A stretch of 32,000 nt of DNA, taken from the NCBI RefSeq assembly GCF_900083515.1, contig NZ_LT671858.1, forward strand, positions 360,001 to 392,000, in the 5' to 3' direction. A model generated the notes under the pieces. It ran no database searches. It saw nothing but the letters and a program-made list of their open reading frames with translations, and was not told the origin of the DNA. The position numbers were made by a program, and so were the translations under genes. This DNA is from Cuniculiplasma divulgatum. GTDB taxonomy: Archaea > Thermoplasmatota > Thermoplasmata > Thermoplasmatales > Thermoplasmataceae. This document shows, one piece after another, positions 4,655-15,396 of the stretch; position 1 is the stretch's first letter; every line of letters starts with the position of its first letter.

Positions 4655-5329
4655 TTATAGCTTGCTCAGAGTAATAGGATCTTCTTCCTCACGGCTCTGG
4701 GACCAGGAATTTATTTCCCTGCTCCTGGCACTGTATGGACTATCGTCATACTGTGAATATCCTCTTCCTAGGGGTCTAAGTTCCTCCCTTTCTTCCGGTC
4801 TTATATCATAATTTCTTCCAGCAGGAATTCTGAATCTTCCCTGTTCCTTTGCAGTAGTGCTCATGGTGCCTCCCAAAAATGACGTCGAGTTGAAGATTAT
4901 TAGACTGCTTGGAAGTATGAGACCCATAGACATCAGCACACCATTAAAGGTTTCAGTGTAAACTATGAGATTTGAATATGCTGCAAGTGGTGCCTTCGAA
5001 AATGCATAAATTCCATCCTTCAAATAGTACCCGGCAAAACTAACCGCCTGTAATCCGGTAGAGATCATATAAAGGGACACGAATATAATGACTGCGGACA
5101 TAATAAGCGAAACTTCCATGGCATTCCTTGCACTGCCTGATTTCCGTCCAGCTACGTAACCTGAAAGAAGCGGTCCCCCTATGGGTATCCACCAGAGTAG
5201 AGCTATGGCTATTATGGAAGTCAAAAATCCATTCCTGATCTCATTTGCCTCTTTTTTACCGCCAAGATCAATCTCTGCCCTGCTGCCACGTAATTTGTTT
5301 GGCTTACCGATGGCTGACACTCGTCGCAT
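4655..5329 (-). CDS. Hypothetical integral membrane protein with a charged, Arg/Glu/Ser-rich C-terminal tail
   Basis: 224-aa ORF with about 4 hydrophobic helices (IIAIALLWWIPIGGPLL; LIMSAVIIFVSLYMI; etc.). I recognise no family. Confidence 0.6.
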   Translation of the reverse strand: MRRVSAIGKPNKLRGSRAEIDLGGKKEANEIRNGFLTSIIAIALLWWIPIGGPLLSGYVAGRKSGSARNAMEVSLIMSAVIIFVSLYMISTGLQAVSFAGYYLKDGIYAFSKAPLAAYSNLIVYTETFNGVLMSMGLILPSSLIIFNSTSFLGGTMSTTAKEQGRFRIPAGRNYDIRPEEREELRPLGRGYSQYDDSPYSARSREINSWSQSREEEDPITLSKL

Positions 5330-6482: not shown

Positions 6483-7803
6483 TGCTCCTGAAAGATGCAT
6501 TCTCAAGTTTCCACGGCATGGAAAGATGTCTCCTTGCATAGGCTGGCGGTTCTAACTTCATTGTCATTCTCTGGTAATTGGTTTTCACGTATTCCGGTTC
6601 CATTACATTACCACACTTAATACACCTGTATTTTAGTGATCCAATGTTCGACGTCCTTGAACCACATCTACTGCATAATGGTGACCTTCGTTCGTATATG
6701 ATGGAGGGGTGAATCAGCTCAAGTTTTTCAATCTTAATTGTTCCCTTAGCATACGAACCAAATAATTTCACGTGATCTCCAATCTCTAATTTTTCAAGTT
6801 CATCTCTGAAGCCCTTTGAGGGCTCAAATGCAACTGCCTTAATATCAGTAACTCCATATTTAATTCCAAAGAACAGGTGTCCCCCCTCCTTCCTTAGAGG
6901 CAATTCATTTACATAGCCCGTAATCTCATAGGATGAAAGTTCCCTTAACTCCATACCTGATTCCAGCCTTAAAATATGATCGTCCGTTCCCTGATTGGTA
7001 GCAAATATCATGTAATTTCTATCAAAATCTGGAAATCTTGAATTGATTTCTTCCTGTATCTGAATCAGGTCATCAAATACAAGTCCCCTTATTCCATAAA
7101 TAACTGGTGTTCTATCCTTTGGAAAAAGGCATACCTTTCCTTCTTTCGTTTCCATATTGTTGAATGTACTGTCATAAGATTCCGCAATTTTTCCAATGGT
7201 TGTCTTAACCATGTCATCCACATACCCTCCCCTTGGATATTTGTAGTTAAGTAACTCATAGGTTGTCCTATTTCTATCCCACGCTATGGAAGAAACAGCG
7301 CCAATGATACCTCTTCCACTTCCTATCTTACGATATATTGAATCAGTTTTCTTCAAAATTTCTTCTATGTAATCCATTGGGATATCGCGTTCAAGTGCAT
7401 TCCTATAAATGTCGGTGTCAAATTTTTTGTTAGAAAAAACAATTCCAGGGTTTGTATTTGTTTGATTTTTCTCATAATATTCCTCAACAATGCCAACAAC
7501 CTGTTCTATCATTGAGTTATCATAGGTTTTAGGAAAATCCGGCTCCATTTCATTGTTTTGCAAACCTAGTGAAATCTTCTTACCATCGGACTTACCAATT
7601 ACTGTTTTAGTTTCTTCTGTTCTATTTCCAATTCTGATGCTGAGTGCACCATTCCCTCTTGTCTTATATTTCAGGTTTGGATTTAATCTAACAAGTCTTG
7701 GAAGCGAAATTATTCTATCTGCAAAGGTAGAAACTATTCTAAAGGCTATGTAAGTAGTGCAACCGGCGTTTCTGGAATCTGTATCATCTATGCCTATCCA
7801 CAT
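6466..7803 (-). CDS. tiaS: tRNA(Ile2) 2-agmatinylcytidine synthetase
   Basis: The N-terminus WIGIDDTDS..AGCTTY is characteristic of TiaS. It is 445 aa with a C-terminal zinc ribbon (CSRCGSRT...RCIKCG). The start codon directly abuts the uppS stop. Confidence 0.88.
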   Translation of the reverse strand: MWIGIDDTDSRNAGCTTYIAFRIVSTFADRIISLPRLVRLNPNLKYKTRGNGALSIRIGNRTEETKTVIGKSDGKKISLGLQNNEMEPDFPKTYDNSMIEQVVGIVEEYYEKNQTNTNPGIVFSNKKFDTDIYRNALERDIPMDYIEEILKKTDSIYRKIGSGRGIIGAVSSIAWDRNRTTYELLNYKYPRGGYVDDMVKTTIGKIAESYDSTFNNMETKEGKVCLFPKDRTPVIYGIRGLVFDDLIQIQEEINSRFPDFDRNYMIFATNQGTDDHILRLESGMELRELSSYEITGYVNELPLRKEGGHLFFGIKYGVTDIKAVAFEPSKGFRDELEKLEIGDHVKLFGSYAKGTIKIEKLELIHPSIIYERRSPLCSRCGSRTSNIGSLKYRCIKCGNVMEPEYVKTNYQRMTMKLEPPAYARRHLSMPWKLENASFRSNEYEF

Positions 7804-8583
7804 TCAGGTGCCAAACCTCCTTTTCCTGGTCTGATATGATCTCACGGCCCTCAGGAAATCTAGTTTTCTAAGTTCTGGCCAGAAAACATCGGAAAAGTAA
7901 AGCTCAGAATAAGCACCCTGCCATAAAAGGAAGTTTGAAACCCTTTCCTCCCCACTTGTTCTAAGGATCAAATCTGGGTCAGGGATAGTTCCATCATAGA
8001 GATATTTCCTGAAATTCTCTTCAGATATATCCTTCATTTCGATCTTACCGGATTTGTATTCTTCTGCTATCTTCCTTATGGCCTCTATTATTTCTTCTCT
8101 TCCCCCATACGCAACAGCAATATTGAGCTTATATCCGTCATAGTCTTTTGTCGCATCTTCGACTTTCCTGATAGAATCCTGCAGGAATTTTGGAAGCGTA
8201 TCAATGCTACCAATAATTTTTACCCTTATCTTATTTTTCAGGACTCTCTCATCGCTTATAAGATTCAGAAGTGAATTGCTGATCAGTGTGAAGAGGAATC
8301 TTACCTCATCATTGTCCCTCTTGAAATTTTCAGTGGAAAACGCGTAAACTGTAACTACTCTGGTTCCTATTTCCATGCACCATTCAAGAACTTCTTCAAG
8401 TTTTTCCTTACCCTTCACGTGACCAAGATTAGAATCCATTCCATGAGAACTGGCATACCTTCTGTTTCCATCTGTTATTATTCCCACATGATACGGTATA
8501 TTTCCATCTTTCTTTATCTGCTCCAGAAGTACTTTTTCATATATTTCTTCTGTCAGATCTCCTATCTTTCTGCTAAGGCTCAT
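7804..8583 (-). CDS. uppS: Undecaprenyl (cis-prenyl) diphosphate synthase
   Basis: Motifs GIITDGNRRYA, AFSTENFKR and RTSGEERVSNFLLWQGAYSELYF. The start overlaps the trm5 stop as ATGA. Confidence 0.93.
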   Translation of the reverse strand: MSLSRKIGDLTEEIYEKVLLEQIKKDGNIPYHVGIITDGNRRYASSHGMDSNLGHVKGKEKLEEVLEWCMEIGTRVVTVYAFSTENFKRDNDEVRFLFTLISNSLLNLISDERVLKNKIRVKIIGSIDTLPKFLQDSIRKVEDATKDYDGYKLNIAVAYGGREEIIEAIRKIAEEYKSGKIEMKDISEENFRKYLYDGTIPDPDLILRTSGEERVSNFLLWQGAYSELYFSDVFWPELRKLDFLRAVRSYQTRKRRFGT

Positions 8584-9539
8584 GTCGGGTCCCTCCTGTA
8601 CTGAAGGCTGTACATGGACTTACTCTTAGAATATCCATGAACGACTCTCTTGGTTTCCAGAAACATCCCTTTGCCGATAAAATATTCCATCTTTTCCTCT
8701 ATTGTCTCCTGGTCTTCCACCATATAGATATTTAATCTTCCCCCATCAGTCAATGATTCTATTATTTCATCAAGGGATTCATATTGATTTACAGGGTTAT
8801 TCATAATAATTCTATTGAATGGTTTTAGTTCTTTTATAATTTTATAAGAATTTCCTTCATGAACTTCAACATCTGATAGAAGTTTATTGATAGACAGGTT
8901 ATACTTCAGTAATTCCACTGCATCACTGTTTATGTCGCATGCTACAATTTTGCATTTAGTCCTTTTAGCTATATTAAGGCTGAAAGGGCCTATTCCAGCG
9001 AACATATCAAAAATATATTCTCCATCTGTAACATTCCTTGAAACCAGATACCTTTCAGTTGATAGTCTTGGTGAGAAATAGGCTTTCTTCACATCAACCT
9101 TCATTATAATGTTGTTCTCCCTGTACATTGTTACAGGGTTATCTTCTCCATATAGAAGTTTAAGATCCCTGAGTCTGGTTTCGCCCTTTATCCCCATGTC
9201 AAGATATATGGTTCTAATGTTTCCCTTTGATTTCAATATGAACTGTACCATGAAATCATGATCAATCCTCTTTCTTTCGTGAATGATTGCTATGTCTCCT
9301 ATAAGATCAAAGGAACCTGCATGGCCCTGTGGCATTATTTTCATTTCTCTGGGCTCGCATTCAATTACTATATTCTCTTCTTTCTCCACGTTTCTGCTGA
9401 CAGGAATGAGGATGTATTCCCCATCCCTTTTTATTTCAAATTGTGGCAAAAAAAAGTCTAGTTTTTTCAGCCTTTCTAAAGCTTTCTGGGCTCTTTCCTT
9501 CTCTATCCTTACGTGAATAACCTCACTCAGAAGAATCAC
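8580..9539 (-). CDS. trm5: tRNA (guanine37-N1)-methyltransferase Trm5 family (Trm5/Taw22-like)
   Basis: SAM-binding motif IFDMFAGIGPFSL, acidic residue VACDIN, and the IIMNNP catalytic-loop motif, in 319 aa. A GTG start at 9539 overlaps the hel308 3' end by 17 nt. Confidence 0.82.
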   Translation of the reverse strand: MILLSEVIHVRIEKERAQKALERLKKLDFFLPQFEIKRDGEYILIPVSRNVEKEENIVIECEPREMKIMPQGHAGSFDLIGDIAIIHERKRIDHDFMVQFILKSKGNIRTIYLDMGIKGETRLRDLKLLYGEDNPVTMYRENNIIMKVDVKKAYFSPRLSTERYLVSRNVTDGEYIFDMFAGIGPFSLNIAKRTKCKIVACDINSDAVELLKYNLSINKLLSDVEVHEGNSYKIIKELKPFNRIIMNNPVNQYESLDEIIESLTDGGRLNIYMVEDQETIEEKMEYFIGKGMFLETKRVVHGYSKSKSMYSLQYRRDPT

Positions 9540-11580
9540 CCATAGTTTTAGCGCTTTTTATTATATTTTCCGCCAGAGTTTTTGAAAATCCCCTGAGTAT
9601 TGCTATATTCTGAACGGTTGATTTTGCAATATCTGACGGTTTTTTAAATCCATTCTCATAGAGTCTTCTTGCCCTAACTCTCCCAACTCCTGGAATTGAA
9701 ATAAGGGACATTATATCATCCCTCACACCTTCTTTCAATCTCAAACTCAGTACATCCAGTGGATAGGAAAGTTCCCTCCTAAACTCTGCTGCCAGTCTGG
9801 AAGCAGCCATTACTATCCATTCAGCAGAAGATTTTCTGGATTCTATATCTCCAGATCCAACAGAGTATTTCTCCTCAATCTCGTATATTGGAACTTCATT
9901 GATCCAATCCAGTAGGAGCATAGCAGTTTTTCCTGCAGCCATATCATCCTCATCCTCCGGGCTCTCTGATATTTCATCAAAAAAGGCACTCAGTGATTCA
10001 TAATCATCCCTGTTTACAAACAATGTAAATATATCTGGTGTTTTGCATATATTATAAAGAATTCTGGCAACGGACATCTCTTCTTCATTTTCCTCAAACA
10101 TATCCACTATAATTTTAGCAGTCTCCGGATCTATATACAGATTTGCAGTTATAGTTCCAAGTTTTTCTGCCTTCAGTATCTGTCCCTTGGTCTCAATGAA
10201 ACCATAATTCTCCAGATAGCCTGTAACCTGATCTACGTAATCCTTCAGTGTACCCTTTCCATTCTGAGATGCATACAGTGTTGAGTCGAAGAATGTGTAA
10301 AGTGAATCTAAGGTTGTACAGAAGTGGTTACTTATTAATGCTAGGGTGTTGAATCTAACAATCTTCTCCTTTCCCATTGCTGAAACAACAGGCTCAACTC
10401 CATTTTCAAACAGATCTTTAACCTTATCAATGGCCCCCTGGGAAGGACAGTAAATATAAGCCTCACCGTGATCATCATATTTTGGTCTGCCAGCCCTTCC
10501 AAGCATCTGTTCTATTTCCATATTTGAAATGTATGAGGAATAGCCATCAGAAAATCTAGTTAAATCCCTGATTATAACGGCTCTTGCCGGAAGATTAATA
10601 CCCGCGGCAAGTGTTGGCGTTGAAGTTATGACCTTTATTCTTCCGCTCTTGAAGTTTTCCTCTACAAATGTTCTGATTCTGGTATTTAGACCAGCATGAT
10701 GGAATGCGACACCTTTTTTCGCAATCCTGTTCACAACCTCTGCATTCCTGTCTCCATCTTCACTAATAATATCAATAGAACTGGGAAACATTCTTTCATC
10801 CATCTGTTCACTTATATCCATTGCAAACTTTTCAGCCCTTTTTCGTGTGTTAAGAAAGAGGAGTACCTGCCCCCCATCATAAAGAATTTTCCTTATCAGT
10901 TCATATATATCCTTTTTAAGAGAATCTATCTGCTGAAATTCATCATCCATCAATTTGTCTCTAAAAATGACGAATTTCTTTAGAGGTACAGGTCTAAAGT
11001 CACTCCTGACAACCGTTGCATCAAGCCATTCTCCAATTTGTGGCGCATTCTGAAGGGTTGCAGAAAGTGCAATGATCTGTATATCCGGATTCACAATCCT
11101 TGCAGTTGTGCATAAGATCTCAAGAGTTGGCCCTCTTGTCTGATCTCCTATGTTATGGATTTCATCCAGTACAAGCACAGCGATATCATTAAAATAATCT
11201 GGATTATGGTGCATTAGAGAATCTGCTTTTTCAGATGTGCAGACTATTACATCAAACCTGTTTATTATATCAGTTCCTGCATCAAGGTCTCCCACGCTAA
11301 GAGCTACTGTAAACATTCCCTTTCCTATTGCCCTGAGTTCATCAAATTTTTCCCTTGCCAGCGCCTTCAAAGGACATATATACATGGATTTCAATCCTTG
11401 TTTTGCAGCCCTTATTATGGCATAATAGGCTATGAGAGATTTTCCCGAGGCTGTTGGTACTGAAACCAGAACACTTCTGCCCTCATCTATTTCATCAATG
11501 GATTTTTTCTGGTGTTCATAGAGACTTACATTCTTACCTGAGAAATAGTAATTTTTAATAATATCCATTGATGTCTCCAC
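9523..11580 (-). CDS. hel308: Hel308/Ski2-like superfamily-2 DNA helicase
   Basis: Motif I VPTASGKS, motif II LVLDEIHNIG, SATL, HHAGL and GRAGRP, plus a C-terminal HhH-like tail (PGVGRVRARRLYENGF). The track starts at the GTG at 11580. The ATG at 11568 (MDIIKNYY...) is the more likely start, with ttaattaa about 35-42 nt upstream of it. Confidence 0.92.
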   Translation of the reverse strand: METSMDIIKNYYFSGKNVSLYEHQKKSIDEIDEGRSVLVSVPTASGKSLIAYYAIIRAAKQGLKSMYICPLKALAREKFDELRAIGKGMFTVALSVGDLDAGTDIINRFDVIVCTSEKADSLMHHNPDYFNDIAVLVLDEIHNIGDQTRGPTLEILCTTARIVNPDIQIIALSATLQNAPQIGEWLDATVVRSDFRPVPLKKFVIFRDKLMDDEFQQIDSLKKDIYELIRKILYDGGQVLLFLNTRKRAEKFAMDISEQMDERMFPSSIDIISEDGDRNAEVVNRIAKKGVAFHHAGLNTRIRTFVEENFKSGRIKVITSTPTLAAGINLPARAVIIRDLTRFSDGYSSYISNMEIEQMLGRAGRPKYDDHGEAYIYCPSQGAIDKVKDLFENGVEPVVSAMGKEKIVRFNTLALISNHFCTTLDSLYTFFDSTLYASQNGKGTLKDYVDQVTGYLENYGFIETKGQILKAEKLGTITANLYIDPETAKIIVDMFEENEEEMSVARILYNICKTPDIFTLFVNRDDYESLSAFFDEISESPEDEDDMAAGKTAMLLLDWINEVPIYEIEEKYSVGSGDIESRKSSAEWIVMAASRLAAEFRRELSYPLDVLSLRLKEGVRDDIMSLISIPGVGRVRARRLYENGFKKPSDIAKSTVQNIAILRGFSKTLAENIIKSAKTMGDSSE

Positions 11581-12560
11581 TTATCTCGGATTTGAAAAGT
11601 GTTAATTAAGATTTATGAATTATAATTAAAAAAAGCATAGCCTCATCCATAATATATGAGTCTCATTTATTTTTGATCTAAATCAGAGTAAATCTTGAAA
11701 TTGCATTAAGGGAACGCTGCACAAAATTTCCCCACCTCTTTTTCACATTTTTTCGAACGACAAAAAGTGGCAGTTAGACCATTTATCATCCTTTATTGTG
11801 ACTTTTTAAGTGATAAAAATGGTGCTTCCTGATATCCATTGCCCAACATTTAATTTTCAACGACTATACTAAGAGCACATAATAGATTGAAATGTTTACT
11901 TAGAGTAGTGAAACGTTTTGCCCTTTATCTAATTGTTTAATCTTGCTTTCATTCCTATTTCTTCGATTTAAATATTATTAGATAGAATACCGAATTAAAA
12001 GGTAAATAACTATATCTCTGGATTCCAGTACATACATAATTTGCACTCTATGTCAAAATCCGTTTTCAAATCAGGCCTCCGCCCGTATTAATTCATGGAG
12101 TCGGTTCAAGTAGTACCTAGAACATTTTACTGTTTTCCTTTATATTAACTCTTCTCGAACTACTATATTATAATTATTTATTGATGAAGAATCAAATACA
12201 AAACTACTGTGGACTTCCCCAAGAGCTGACAATTTAAAACGATAATACAAAGTAATATTAAAACCACCTTGGGCAATTCATCCACTTCATTCCACAGGGA
12301 AATTTTCGGATGCTTTAGTGATACTACTGGTCATTGTGGCTAACACGTTAGGCTTTTTGGTCGCAGGAGAGTGCCTAAAGGATTTAACTCTCCATAAAAA
12401 TCAGTGAAGTATAAATCGTTTTCAACTTTCCACTTTTATCCATATTGCTGATAATTATAGAGGAAAGTATTGTCTCACATAAAGCAAGAAATCAAATTAA
12501 AAATGCCTCCGTAATTGAATTAAAAGAGAAAAAATTGATGAATAATAAAGAGACAGAAAA

Positions 12561-12573
12561 ATATATATATATA
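12561..12573 (+). promoter_or_regulatory. TATA-box candidate, (AT)6A run, for the orphan cassette
   Basis: atatatatatata is centred about 23 nt upstream of the GTG start at 12590. This spacing fits an archaeal TATA box driving a leaderless or near-leaderless mRNA. Confidence 0.45.
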
Positions 12574-12589
12574 AAACTATTATAAACAT

Positions 12590-13777
12590 GTGAATATACG
12601 AAAGAAATTACTTGGAGTGGCTGCAGTTTTCATAGTCATCATGTTTTTAGGGATATCAATGCAGAGTTCAGTTGCATCCCATACGAACCATAAGCATACC
12701 ATCAACATGTCAGATCAAGTATCAAAGGGAAAATATTTGATCCAGAATCCTTCCAACACATCGGATAATTTATCTAACCTATTCAATTCATGGCTCATGA
12801 ATGATGAACATGCTGACACTCTGAGTGAAGGAAGAGCTATTAATTCTCATATGCTTGGAACTTCACAGGTTGAGGAACTGTTTCCAAAATTCATCAAGGA
12901 TAATCCTGTGGCAATAAGCATGATCAATAAGATTACCAATAGGGAAAAGATCAGATTCAGAATGGAGAACCAGGAGGCAGGACTTAAATTTATTAATTAC
13001 ATAAAAGAACATCCTAAAATGCCTGTCAACACAGTGTTAACATTATCATCAAACAATTCAAGGTATTTTGTCACTAAGGCTTCAACAGCATCCTATCCTT
13101 CAGGATTTCCCACATGGTCAGGTGAATTCACAATGGTATCAGTAAATTATTTTGGCATATCATGGTGGTATCCTGGACCATGGTATGCTCCATGGGCTGG
13201 TCACTGGGGGACGCTAAACTATGGTGAACATGATACAATTAACATACTATATGTTGGTTCGGACGCTCAATATTGGTATAATCATATGTACAATACAATA
13301 AACACTATACAAACATATGATGCAGTCGGCGGATTCTTTACAGCATCAATATCTGCTTTAGGAGGTTATTATGGAATAGGTGCCATTGCTGGGGAAGTTG
13401 GATCAGCAATTGCTGGGATAATTGCAGTCGCTGCTATTTCAATATACGCAATTCAGAGTTATATGGCAAATCAATTACATACTATGTATGATTCAACCTA
13501 TGCAAACCCAATTAAAGGAAATCCAAAATTTATGTGGGAATATTACGACATCAATTTCTTTTATCCGTGGATTACAGTAGTTGGAACCTTTGCATCATCA
13601 TTTTCCTGGAATGGATATACTAACACAGGCACAGTTTCTATTTTCCCATACATACCCGTTATAGGTAATAACCCTGCATTTGTAGTTGTTTCGAGTGCTC
13701 TTTCAGGAGAGACACATAATATAGCAAGTAGATTAGGGTGGAATACATGGGGGGAATATTACGGGTGGCAATGGTGA
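12590..13777 (+). CDS. Orphan secreted/membrane-anchored Trp/Tyr-rich protein with a glycine-zipper hydrophobic hairpin
   Basis: 395-aa ORF. GTG is the only start available after the in-frame TAA at 12572-12574. It gives a classical Sec signal peptide (MNIRKKLLGVAAVFIVIMFLGISMQSSVAS|H). There are 15 Trp, including WWYPGPWYAPWAGHWG and the C-terminal GWNTWGEYYGWQW. A Gly/Ala-rich segment with GxxxG spacing (GGYYGIGAIAGEVGSAIAGIIAVAAISIYAI) is present, along with four N-x-S/T sequons. I recognise no family. Confidence 0.75.
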   Translation: MNIRKKLLGVAAVFIVIMFLGISMQSSVASHTNHKHTINMSDQVSKGKYLIQNPSNTSDNLSNLFNSWLMNDEHADTLSEGRAINSHMLGTSQVEELFPKFIKDNPVAISMINKITNREKIRFRMENQEAGLKFINYIKEHPKMPVNTVLTLSSNNSRYFVTKASTASYPSGFPTWSGEFTMVSVNYFGISWWYPGPWYAPWAGHWGTLNYGEHDTINILYVGSDAQYWYNHMYNTINTIQTYDAVGGFFTASISALGGYYGIGAIAGEVGSAIAGIIAVAAISIYAIQSYMANQLHTMYDSTYANPIKGNPKFMWEYYDINFFYPWITVVGTFASSFSWNGYTNTGTVSIFPYIPVIGNNPAFVVVSSALSGETHNIASRLGWNTWGEYYGWQW

Positions 13778-14121
13778 TTGATCTTCGGCTCTTCCAAACT
13801 CTGTGGGTATTTCCCTATACTCTTATTTTCCTTACTTTCAGAAAGGAAATCTCAAAGAAAAATGTGAATGGAATTTCCACAAAGCTACATAATATAGTTA
13901 TAGTCGAGTATGCAACTATTCTGATTTTAGTTTCTATTGGGTGCCTGATTGCGATAATAGGTGGTCTTAATTATTTTTCAATTGTAAATCTGTCAATCAC
14001 AGAGTACTGGGGCTCAGAGTTTGAATATTTAATGCTTATTGTAATCCTAATATCATTCTTTGAATATGTATTCTTTAGTCTCAACAAATATCTCTTAAAG
14101 TCCTCACGATCACCATATTAA
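13771..14121 (+). CDS. Small hypothetical 3-TM membrane protein, translationally coupled to the preceding gene
   Basis: The ATG at 13771 overlaps the upstream TGA (caATGGTGAtt). At 116 aa it has three hydrophobic helices (LFQTLWVFPYTLIFLTF; IVEYATILILVSIGCLIAIIGGL; FEYLMLIVILISFFEYVFFSL). The track's earlier ATG at 13738 lies inside the upstream gene and encodes a non-hydrophobic extension. Confidence 0.6.
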   Translation: MVIDLRLFQTLWVFPYTLIFLTFRKEISKKNVNGISTKLHNIVIVEYATILILVSIGCLIAIIGGLNYFSIVNLSITEYWGSEFEYLMLIVILISFFEYVFFSLNKYLLKSSRSPY

Positions 14122-14754
14122 TTATTTCACATTTCCATTTTGCTTAATAAATACGATATCTGACGTGAATTCAATGGTATAATCCTCAAGATAATCTTTG
14201 AGGTACTTTATGTAAAGATTATTTCTCTTCACTGAACCGATTAATTTTTTTTGAAGTCTGAAGGGTCAATAAAATAAAATTTCATGTTAAAATTCCGATC
14301 TACAGTTGATTTTATGCCGTGTCAATAGAATCACAACCTATTTTCAGGATATCTTCTTAATGATCAGCAATAAGTAAAACTTCTCTTCTACCATTCTAAA
14401 AGCAAATTCTATCCACATCCTAATCTTATAAATTCAGGTTTCACAGCCTCAAATTTAAAAATTATATTTCATTGAAGCCTGGATAGATCGATATAATCAC
14501 ACATACCATCGACACTATAGAAACATGCAAAGCAGTTTAGGCCATTTTCAGAAAAATGGGTTCAGTAATTACAGGAATAATCCCAATCAATTTCATCTCA
14601 ATATTTGAATACGTTTAATGAAACTGGTCTAAAGAGATGGTATTGGATAAGGATAGAAATTCATGCAGGTTAACATGAACTGTCTTAAAATTCTCAGGAT
14701 TAAAGTTTCCAGAAGTATAGCTTCGACGAAATCTAAAAGTAAAAAAAGAATAGG

Positions 14755-15396
14755 ATGAAGGAATATAAGGAAACATTGAACAGACCTCATATCATATTAA
14801 ATATGGCACAGAGCATAAACGGCTACATCTCAAAAATTTCAGGGGAAAGGGCATATATATCATCTGAGGAGGATAACATAAGAGTCCAGACTCTAAGAAA
14901 TAACTCAGATGGAATACTGGTTGGGTATAGAACAGTAATCAAGGATAACCCATCGCTGATCGCGCCTAACAATAAGAACTCAATTAGACTCATAATAGAC
15001 CCACGCTGTAGTCTCACTCCAAATTACAGGGTAATGGATGGAAAGAGAAAAACCATAATACTTAACTCTGAAAAAAGTGAGAAATGTGAAGAAAATATAG
15101 AGTACGTAAACTGTGGTAAACCTTTCAATCTTGAAAAATCGCTGGAACTCATTTATGAAAAGGGAATTAGGTCAGTTCTCGTAGAGGGAGGCAGGGTTAC
15201 AGCAGAGGCATTTCTGCAAAGAGGATTTGTAGACGAAATGTATATGTTTATTGGGGATCTGTTTCTCGAGGATGGCGGAATACTTTCTCCAACCACAGAT
15301 AGGGAAATAAGAAATGTTATACTTGATGTGAGGATTATGAAAGGTGGGTTGTTGCTTAAGATTGACCCATCAAAATTTAAGAGGGAATGGAAATGA
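14755..15396 (+). CDS. RibD C-terminal-domain (DHFR-fold) reductase, probably 2,5-diamino-6-ribosylamino-4(3H)-pyrimidinone 5'-phosphate reductase
   Basis: 213 aa. Motifs ILNMAQSINGYIS, LRNNSDGILVGYRTVIKDNPSL and VLVEGGRVTAEAFLQRGFVDEMYMFI are typical of the archaeal riboflavin-pathway reductase / RibD_C family. Confidence 0.78.
   Translation: MKEYKETLNRPHIILNMAQSINGYISKISGERAYISSEEDNIRVQTLRNNSDGILVGYRTVIKDNPSLIAPNNKNSIRLIIDPRCSLTPNYRVMDGKRKTIILNSEKSEKCEENIEYVNCGKPFNLEKSLELIYEKGIRSVLVEGGRVTAEAFLQRGFVDEMYMFIGDLFLEDGGILSPTTDREIRNVILDVRIMKGGLLLKIDPSKFKREWK

Follow-up and report, generated by a model that had tools for sequence, protein, structure and literature searches.

Polymorphic toxin systems (PTS), including the contact-dependent inhibition (CDI) pair CdiA-CT/CdiI, Rhs and the PTS-like archaeal VARTIG module (PMC8416519), are among the closest described counterparts of a two-gene cassette that we examined in Cuniculiplasma divulgatum. 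The cassette lies in a 32,000-nucleotide (nt) stretch of contig NZ_LT671858.1 (positions 360,001 to 392,000 of the forward strand; hereafter the window) and consists of gene 1, encoding a predicted exported protein with an internal hydrophobic helical hairpin, and gene 2, encoding a predicted small membrane protein. Like the polymorphic toxin systems, the cassette has a conserved N-terminal part that meets a variable part at a recombining junction, a small gene directly downstream, tandem spare copies of that gene that follow pieces of the large one, alleles that switch between strains, and horizontal mobility. Unlike them, its proteins have no homology to those of any such system, the variable part of gene 1 is an internal transmembrane (TM) hairpin preceding a conserved C-terminal domain (C-domain) rather than a C-terminal soluble toxin, export of gene 1 relies on a plain Sec signal and not on T5/T6/T7-type machinery, the spare copies mostly retain only the gene 1 tail, and the host cells are archaeal and have no wall. 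The locus thus follows a known logic, that of a polymorphic effector-immunity module; new are the proteins, the fold, the internal TM position of the variable element, the setting in wall-less archaea and the lack of a dedicated secretion system.

Colicin immunity proteins have three to four TM helices and recognise the hydrophobic hairpin. Gene 1 resembles the pore-forming colicins in its predicted hydrophobic, Ala/Gly-rich helical hairpin, a candidate membrane-inserting element, and gene 2 resembles their immunity proteins in length (~110–130 residues), in its ~3 predicted TM helices and in its predicted location in the cytoplasmic membrane, where the immunity proteins of pore-forming toxins are normally found (PMC9558359). 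As in colicin/immunity pairs, specificity could plausibly be read by intramembrane helix packing. The differences from the colicins are that gene 1 matches no colicin pore-domain fold or Pfam model and lacks functions in receptor binding, translocation or lysis, that the two genes run in the same direction and overlap, and that they lie on the chromosome.

The Cdz system of Caulobacter comprises glycine-zipper bacteriocins that are kept on the producer surface and kill on contact, with immunity conferred by the small inner-membrane protein CdzI from the same operon; CdzC and CdzD are 84–86 residues long, are exported by a type I system and form aggregates (PMC5380434). Compared with Cdz by description only, the cassette likewise pairs a glycine-zipper protein with a small membrane protein, but its zipper is embedded in a 395-residue multidomain protein and no dedicated exporter accompanies it. 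In archaea, a recent preprint describes halocin H4 as a protein antibiotic whose central transmembrane region is essential, and reports Sec-signal H4 homologues in two Thermoplasmata metagenome-assembled genomes (MAGs; bioRxiv 10.64898/2026.07.27.741052). Gene 1 and H4 (359 residues) are alike in being archaeal, exported and similar in size, with an internal hydrophobic region that H4 needs for killing; unlike gene 1, H4 has a single short TM stretch, and the section of the preprint consulted describes no arrays of adjacent small membrane genes for it.

Mosaic structure and mobility of the cassette

Gene 1, its parts and gene 2 are laid out in the window as follows.

12590–13777, + strand: gene 1, exported membrane protein of an unclassified family (open reading frame (ORF); ratio of nonsynonymous to synonymous substitution rates (dN/dS); no family or fold match)
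12590–12676, + strand: predicted signal peptide, amino acids (aa) 1–29 (MNIRKK, hydrophobic core, SVA/S; Kyte-Doolittle peak 2.39 over residues 7–25)
12755–13009, + strand: N-terminal helical ectodomain, aa 56–140 (AlphaFold2 helices H57-72, H91-104 and H106-140; predicted local distance difference test (pLDDT) 80–90)
13163–13210, + strand: Trp/Tyr/Pro-rich loop WWYPGPWYAPWAGHWG, aa 192–207 (alignment; AlphaFold2 model)
13205–13309, + strand: junction motif LNYGEHDTINILYVGSDAQYWYN, aa 206–240 (identity 0.62; D215 invariant; recombination breakpoint)
13310–13459, + strand: variable Gly/Ala/Ser-zipper helical hairpin, aa 241–290 (two hydrophobic helices with a short GEVGS turn between them)
13460–13753, + strand: post-hairpin helix (YDSTYANP motif) and C-terminal beta-rich domain with an amphipathic helix, aa 291–388 (identity 0.58–0.64; pLDDT 76–94 over most of it)
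13754–13777, + strand: tail ending in EYYGWQW, and stop codon (alignment, ORFs)
13738–14121, + strand: gene 2, small membrane protein of 116–127 aa (ORF; hydrophobicity; loci of relatives)

Comparison of the window with locus L029 gave 98–100% nt identity through the promoter and into gene 1 for ~630 nt, followed by 50–75% identity, and the drop falls exactly at the YGEHDTINIL motif. Beyond it, the 3′ third of the L029 gene, encoding the C-domain, resembles that of locus L004, the hairpin resembles neither, and gene 2 is different. The upstream neighbour of L029 also differs from that of the window and is an ORF read as A-ATPase subunit K-like. A second comparison is provided by the sister strains L032 and L033, whose flanks are 99.6–100% identical. 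Their cassettes differ in two places only, a patch spanning the junction and hairpin (70–85% identity) and the identity of the gene 2 that follows gene 1; the C-domain between these two differences is 97–100% identical. Gene 1 of L032 is fused to the equivalent of L033's first spare tail fragment and second gene 2. From the positions of these breaks, the hairpin and the adjacent gene 2 therefore changed together in both natural switches (L029/window and L032/L033). The spare fragment of L004 also begins at the junction motif, where it is 96% identical in nt to the main gene. The conserved N-terminal part of gene 1 joins the variable part at a sharp, recombinogenic junction.

The two genes travel together. 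At all 17 distinct gene 1 loci (17/17), an ORF of 107–139 aa with ~3 hydrophobic helices begins between −40 and +12 nt from the gene 1 stop codon. The neighbours of the window cassette never recur near any gene 1 relative, and nucleotide similarity to L007, from the nearest other species, is restricted to positions 12561–14236. Elsewhere the cassette lies in the contexts CysRS/GATase, rhodanese/EgtD-like and TopoVI/IF-2B, or beside the A-ATPase subunit K-like ORF. The cassette is mobile, and its chromosomal site differs in each lineage.

At L004, 390-nt direct repeats (L004:5502–5889 and 8522–8910, 90–97% identical) bracket the cassette, its spare module and a truncated ORF that looks IS630-like by eye and has no match in Pfam. 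What the repeat duplicates is the 3′ end of two genes, one for a rhodanese and one for an EgtD-like methyltransferase. Because these direct repeats of the target region bracket the island, it looks as though it was imported by homologous recombination.

Spare gene 2 copies and decay of gene 1

Additional copies of gene 2 are present at several loci. Behind gene 1 of L033 stand four gene 2 paralogs in tandem, and a 45-aa fragment of the gene 1 tail precedes each of them except the first. There are three gene 2 copies in L032 and also in L024, which contains two decayed copies of gene 1 as well. A single spare module was found in L012 (a tail fragment and second gene 2) and in L004 (two gene 2 copies in all); the L004 spare fragment consists of the junction motif, a different hairpin and a stop region joined through an 8-nt microhomology, and the second gene 2 follows. 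In all seven spare modules (7/7), gene 1 is present as fragments and gene 2 is intact.

The same asymmetry is seen where gene 1 itself is disrupted, by two stop codons and a hairpin deletion in L009, by a stop codon in L011 and by a frameshift in L015; gene 2 is intact each time. A solitary gene 2 (L030/L031) adjoins an IS110-like remnant, and the same MAG has a full cassette elsewhere. The metagenomic variants of gene 1 include deletions, inversions and fusions.

Some of these loci have additional features. Both gene 1 copies of Cuniculiplasma sp. SKW4 (L009 and L010) begin at contig ends, which suggests that the assembly broke in their shared, conserved 5′ part; one of the two is a pseudogene, with its gene 2 intact. 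Within gene 1 of L004, a perfect 21-nt repeat (L004:6221–6241 and 6911–6931) encodes ANPLNG twice, and the metagenomic protein P0031 (161 aa) corresponds to a deletion between the two ANPLNG copies; P0058 is an inversion variant and P0027 a fusion of gene 1 with gene 2. Beside the solitary gene 2, L030:1714–3975 encodes a predicted surface protein of 753 aa with many SNGY(L/V)YV.N..SN.VSVINGATN-type repeats and a C-terminal membrane anchor; with the IS110-like remnant and a DDE transposase nearby, the region appears to be a variable surface-protein island.

Gene 1 protein

The ORFs are as described in the initial annotation, which had been made from the window sequence without database searches: gene 1 has a GTG start and encodes 395 aa, and an ATG at 13771 lies inside ATGGTGA. 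The gene 1 product shares 100% identity with a 'hypothetical protein' from Thermoplasmatales archaeon Gpl. It lacks Cys and contains 15 Trp (3.8%), the highest proportion among the 22 window ORFs of at least 200 aa (mean 0.83%, gene 1 included); the hand counts reported in that annotation, of Trp and of G+C on three quoted lines (14/60, 20/60 and 30/60), are exact. The motifs that it singled out start at aa 192 (WWYPGPWYAPWAGHWG), aa 262 (GIGAIAGEVGSAIAGIIAVAA) and aa 383 (GWNTWGEYYGWQW).

The N-terminus fits a Sec signal peptide on inspection, as had been proposed, with a hydrophobic stretch leading to a putative cleavage site at SVA/S, and relatives show the same N-terminal signal layout in the alignment. 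Two N-x-S/T sequons (N56 and N60) lie at the start of the N-terminal ectodomain, and the alignment consensus retains one NxS motif in this region. An AlphaFold2 model built from 37 sequences (pLDDT 71, predicted TM-score (pTM) 0.71; pLDDT 62 for an earlier model) places in order an N-terminal helical domain, a long beta-hairpin, the helical hairpin and the C-terminal beta-rich domain with its amphipathic helix. In the model, WWYPGPWYAPWAGHWG lies mostly at the tip loop of the long beta-hairpin (E178-194/E205-222) and extends into both strands; shorter loops replace it in some relatives. This loop is a candidate membrane-interface element. The EYYGWQW tail is confined to the subtype in which gene 2 overlaps gene 1.

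The helical hairpin reaches a Kyte-Doolittle peak of 2.24. The initial annotation had emphasized GxxxG spacing; exact GxxxG is limited in the window hairpin to G258-G262 and G264-G268, but the underlying small-xxx-small periodicity is present throughout the family. Gly, Ala and Ser together average 41% of hairpin residues across the family. In 36 related, hence non-independent, sequences we counted 160 small-xxx-small-xxx-small motifs in the hairpins versus 101.8±9.6 in within-sequence shuffles, and 60 GxxxG motifs versus 34.4±4.8, with none of 1,000 shuffles (0/1000) reaching the observed counts. Small-xxx-small periodicity is thus a family-wide feature of the hairpin beyond its composition.

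Remote relatives from high-G+C genomes (P0043, P0046, P0050 and P0052) contain a module of ~380 aa as the N-terminal base of proteins of 582–1220 aa, in which repeated beta-rich domains follow the module. Both hairpin helices are plainly hydrophobic in these long proteins. The extension of P0052 gives weak Ig-like (Big_1) Pfam matches, and its terminal segment is Hint-like by eye (GGGCILNGTLV...). Gene 1 had been described as secreted. Because of its hydrophobic two-helix hairpin and the relatives with Ig-like repeats after the module, it is probably a membrane-embedded surface protein instead, not a freely secreted one, and the long relatives argue for a topology with both ectodomains facing outward and the hairpin dipping into the membrane. 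Cuniculiplasma has no cell wall or S-layer, and its cell membrane is therefore its cell surface (PMC5155288).

Gene 2 protein

Gene 2 ends at 14121 and has four candidate starts, GTG 13738, ATG 13747, GTG 13765 and ATG 13771, each of which overlaps gene 1, by 7–40 nt. The initial annotation had placed the start at ATG 13771, but the start is ambiguous; GTG 13765 is the start of the 118-aa protein deposited at the National Center for Biotechnology Information (NCBI). The product is identical to a C. divulgatum hypothetical protein. It has three hydrophobic stretches, the first below the Kyte-Doolittle threshold of 1.4, a basic loop after TM1 and an N-x-S sequon (NLS) in the TM2-TM3 loop. This arrangement fits a predicted N-out/C-in topology.

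Profile comparison supports homology between the window type of gene 2 and types B and C (probability 63%, E = 7e-5). Homology with the L011/L012/L033 type is not supported, and we do not assign all clades to a single gene 2 family.

Selection and variability

Both genes of the cassette are real genes under purifying selection, with dN/dS between diverged copies of 0.19–0.40 for gene 1 and 0.24–0.58 for gene 2. Within gene 1, the hairpin has a mean pairwise identity of 0.29, the second lowest of eight segments; the post-signal linker (0.21) and the signal peptide (0.32) are the other variable segments. The hairpin is bracketed by the best-conserved segments, with identities of 0.62 (the junction) and 0.64, and is flanked by invariant polar residues; E213 and D215 are invariant.

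The four gene 2 paralogs of L033 gave dN/dS of 0.65–1.96, values that rest on few sites and carry no significance test. The ratio of nonsynonymous to synonymous polymorphism (pN/pS) among them is 1.36 in TM1, 1.64 in TM2 and 0.55 in the basic loop. These ratios are suggestive of diversification of gene 2 within its TM helices.

Family and fold searches

Neither protein has a match in Pfam, NCBIfam, PHROGs or PADLOC, and the 37 gene 1 relatives yielded nothing consistent in Pfam and no colicin-type pore-forming domain. Foldseek searches of the Protein Data Bank (PDB) with both gene 1 models, and of BFVD with the better model, gave no match at E < 0.3; the PDB had none at E < 0.5 either, and its top-ranked matches have TM-scores of ~0.1. 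An exhaustive HMMER search over 1.84 billion representative proteins identified 41 gene 1 clusters, and a word-indexed profile search of a collection of 5.8 billion proteins identified 21 gene 2 clusters. All named matches of both families come from acidophilic Thermoplasmatota or Cuniculiplasma genomes or MAGs. The earlier statement that neither protein belongs to a known family is thus borne out by all the libraries used and by both fold searches; the term 'orphan' is correct in that the genes lack annotation, but small families of both exist. The cassette encodes two new protein families, with a gene 1 fold that has no match in the PDB.

Other candidate relationships were examined and set aside. 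Residues 300–366 of gene 1 (window 13487–13687) align with the NEAT domains of IsdH and IsdB, best with IsdH (E = 0.08 over 67 columns, sharing IFPYIP); this value is non-significant and Foldseek returned no NEAT match, so we rejected a haem-binding NEAT domain. Glycine-zipper models in Pfam and NCBIfam gave sub-threshold matches only: Gly-zipper_YMGG, with E = 0.05 in one member, and the zipper region of PdsO, with E = 7.6e-6 and 25.8 bits against a cut-off of 152. For comparison with halocin H4, the halH4 sequence of Haloferax mediterranei was taken from pHM300. Kinship with H4 was rejected (BLASTP E = 1.4; hhalign probability of 0.1% for the 37-sequence profile versus HalH4), and tblastn against a plasmid collection including pHM300 found no match.

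Functional interpretation of the cassette

The initial annotation had proposed a toxin/immunity-like pair, with a surface or adhesion module as an equally valid reading. The comparative evidence supports a toxin/immunity-like reading over a plain structural one because the loci recombine as mosaics at a conserved junction, gather spare gene 2 copies in arrays, and keep gene 2 where gene 1 is disrupted or absent; these features favour the logic of the proposal without proving it. The explanation that we rank first, at about even odds, is that the cassette serves wall-less acidophilic Thermoplasmatota as a polymorphic, mobile conflict module of two genes.

By analogy with the systems described above, we infer toxicity, pore formation, protection, physical interaction between the two proteins and a route of delivery as follows. 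Gene 1 would be exported via Sec and end up in or on the cytoplasmic membrane, the cell surface of Cuniculiplasma. The hairpin between the two ectodomains would be the membrane-active and specificity-bearing element, perturbing or permeabilising membranes through zipper-mediated oligomerisation, and the Trp-rich beta-hairpin loop and the conserved ectodomains may engage a neighbouring membrane by direct contact or via vesicles. Gene 2, presumably translated from the gene 1 mRNA, would neutralise the cognate hairpin through intramembrane helix-helix packing and thereby protect the producer and its kin. Homologous recombination at the YGExDxIN...AQxWYN junction and at the gene 1 tail, both of them conserved, would generate new specificities by swapping the hairpin and the adjacent gene 2, while displaced or duplicated units of gene 1 tail and gene 2 would persist as spare immunity genes.

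A wider claim, which we regard as possible and lean slightly against, is that the cassette represents a new archaeal inter-cell weapon or identity system acting membrane to membrane between wall-less cells. In such a system the exchangeable glycine-zipper hairpin of a Sec-exported surface protein with a new fold would damage, or test the identity of, the membrane of a touching neighbour, a hypervariable three-helix protein would protect from inside the bilayer in an allele-specific manner, and strains would stockpile spares.

Several points weigh against a conflict module. In the libraries searched, gene 1 and gene 2 have no similarity to known toxin or immunity families. Exported through Sec, a hydrophobic hairpin would be expected to enter the membrane of the producing cell itself. 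Near the cassette there are no genes for release, lysis or delivery; at every locus we found only the Sec-type signal and housekeeping neighbours, with no dedicated secretion or delivery apparatus and no trafficking domain. The signal peptide and linker are as variable as the hairpin, and TM segments evolve fast under weak constraint. Across 15 units, divergence of the hairpin correlated with that of gene 2 with a Spearman coefficient of 0.21, compared with 0.33 for the N-domain and 0.45 for the C-domain, so the correlation is not specific to the hairpin. The raised dN/dS of gene 2 has the narrow basis given above, and profile comparison could not show homology between the window type of gene 2 and the L011/L012/L033 clade. 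Within C. divulgatum/G-plasma the two genes occupy one fixed locus without sequence differences, evolve under purifying selection and have core-like G+C, and the longer relatives bear adhesin-like Ig-like repeats after the module.

The surface features of gene 1 also accommodate a non-toxic identity or adhesion module, in which gene 1 would be a polymorphic surface receptor or fusogen-like adhesin and gene 2 its allele-specific membrane partner; matched alleles may license, and mismatches block, cell-cell adhesion, membrane exchange or DNA transfer. Proteus IdsD/IdsE and Myxococcus TraA are analogues. Surface exposure, the Trp-rich beta-hairpin loop, the conserved sequons, the relatives with Ig-like repeats, allele switching that changes the hairpin and gene 2 together, and a host without a cell wall (PMC5155288) all agree with such a module. 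We nevertheless think it rather unlikely: protection accounts more easily for arrays with as many as four copies of gene 2, for the solitary gene 2 and for gene 2 beside a broken gene 1, and the part that varies lies within the membrane, not in the exposed ectodomains. Purifying selection on both genes, their core-like G+C, fixation in C. divulgatum, the invariant polar residues beside the hairpin and the use of the module as the N-terminal base of long, repeat-bearing proteins would all be expected of an ordinary lineage-specific envelope complex. Gene 1 would then be a membrane-anchored glycoprotein, either a glycocalyx or structural component or an ecto-enzyme (E213/D215), and gene 2 its assembly or anchoring subunit; variation, duplicates and pseudogenes may reflect drift in a dispensable gene. 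That the chromosomal site is different in every lineage, that sharp recombination breaks separate near-identical strains, that decay is asymmetric (gene 1 fragments versus intact gene 2 in 7/7 spare modules and 3/3 disrupted copies) and that dN/dS of the gene 2 paralogs is ~1 or more in the TM helices together make this explanation distinctly unlikely.

Movement between sites, the layout of a spike-like protein with a small membrane protein and the insertion sequence (IS)-like remnants near the L004 and L030 cassettes might also be read as traces of a virus, plasmid or vesicle element, with gene 1 as an envelope spike or fusion protein and gene 2 as a small virion membrane protein. We found no relatives in 2.9 million IMG/VR contigs, JGI metagenome contigs, GenBank phages or PLSDB plasmids, no PHROG family and no BFVD fold match, and no viral genes, integrase or att-like repeats around any locus examined, and regard such an origin as highly improbable.

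The locus suggests that archaea possess a so far undescribed system for conflict or recognition between cells. Archaeal mechanisms of conflict and of self/non-self discrimination are almost unknown beyond halocins and a few predicted systems, and the cassette bears the evolutionary signature of an effector-immunity arms race, namely allele switching, spare-immunity arrays and effector loss. If the wider claim above is true, no polymorphic effector-immunity system would have been described in Thermoplasmatota before this one, and the cassette could help to determine strain structure, and perhaps also host-symbiont contact, in the biofilms of acid mines. An internal TM hairpin as the variable specificity element is unusual among polymorphic systems. 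The Thermoplasmatales of acid mine drainage are a classic model of population genomics and recombination and form dense biofilms in which only a lipid membrane lies between cells. With two genes in 1.5 kb and a cultured host, C. divulgatum, the locus is experimentally tractable and makes it testable whether wall-less archaea fight or recognise one another by direct membrane contact.

The cassette within the window

The source lineage of the cassette is C. divulgatum/'G-plasma'. Positions 11130–14792 of the window are 100% identical to a contig of GCA_022678495.1, and both regions flanking the cassette are 100% identical in the complete 1.93-Mb genome CP133596.1. As noted in the initial annotation, the cassette is the only non-housekeeping coding DNA in the window; the remaining genes include those for SerRS, AlaRS, fibrillarin, chorismate synthase, Hel308, RibD_C and AdoHcyase. 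One ORF in the housekeeping array (4655–5329, − strand, 224 aa) has no Pfam family at E ≤ 1e-5. Other aspects of the setting require revision. AT-richness is limited to the cassette flanks (30–31% G+C), but gene 1, at 37.6%, equals the window mean of 37.7% and is not compositionally foreign. Nor does the cassette stand alone in an island, since the order hel308/cassette/RibD_C is fixed, and the locus identical, within C. divulgatum/G-plasma.

Two AT-rich spacers, 11581–12546 (~1 kb) and 14237–14754 (~0.5 kb), contain no convincing ORF and are 99.8–100% conserved among C. divulgatum/G-plasma assemblies. Silent spacers of this length are unusual in a compact genome. Rfam and tRNA scans of the cassette region gave no match, and tblastn with all gene 1 and gene 2 variants found no remnant of either gene in the 1-kb and 0.6-kb flanks. 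The search for terminal repeats or target duplications around the window cassette returned only a weak 22-nt inverted pair (12436/14358), which lies outside the conserved block and which we judge to be a chance occurrence.

Two further blocks border the genes.

12547–12589, + strand: promoter-proximal block that moves with the cassette (start of similarity at other loci; unrelated DNA further upstream)
14122–14236, + strand: conserved 3′ flank of the cassette (76% identity with L007)

Similarity to other loci starts at 12500 (L004), 12529 (L029), 12547 (L018) and 12561 (L007). From 12547 onward, L018 (GCA_027316515.1) is 99.95% identical to the window, and the DNA upstream of the cassette promoter is wholly different; this upstream DNA (L018:1–548) holds a 100-aa ORF (231–533) with no Pfam family. 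Two explanations fit the difference: the strains part at a breakpoint 43 nt before gene 1, or the assembly was joined there, at the end of a contig. A TA-repeat/TATA-like run (~12561–12577) lies ~23 nt 5′ of the gene 1 GTG, and this spacing suggests a leaderless or near-leaderless gene 1 mRNA. The transcript probably ends within the conserved 3′ flank.

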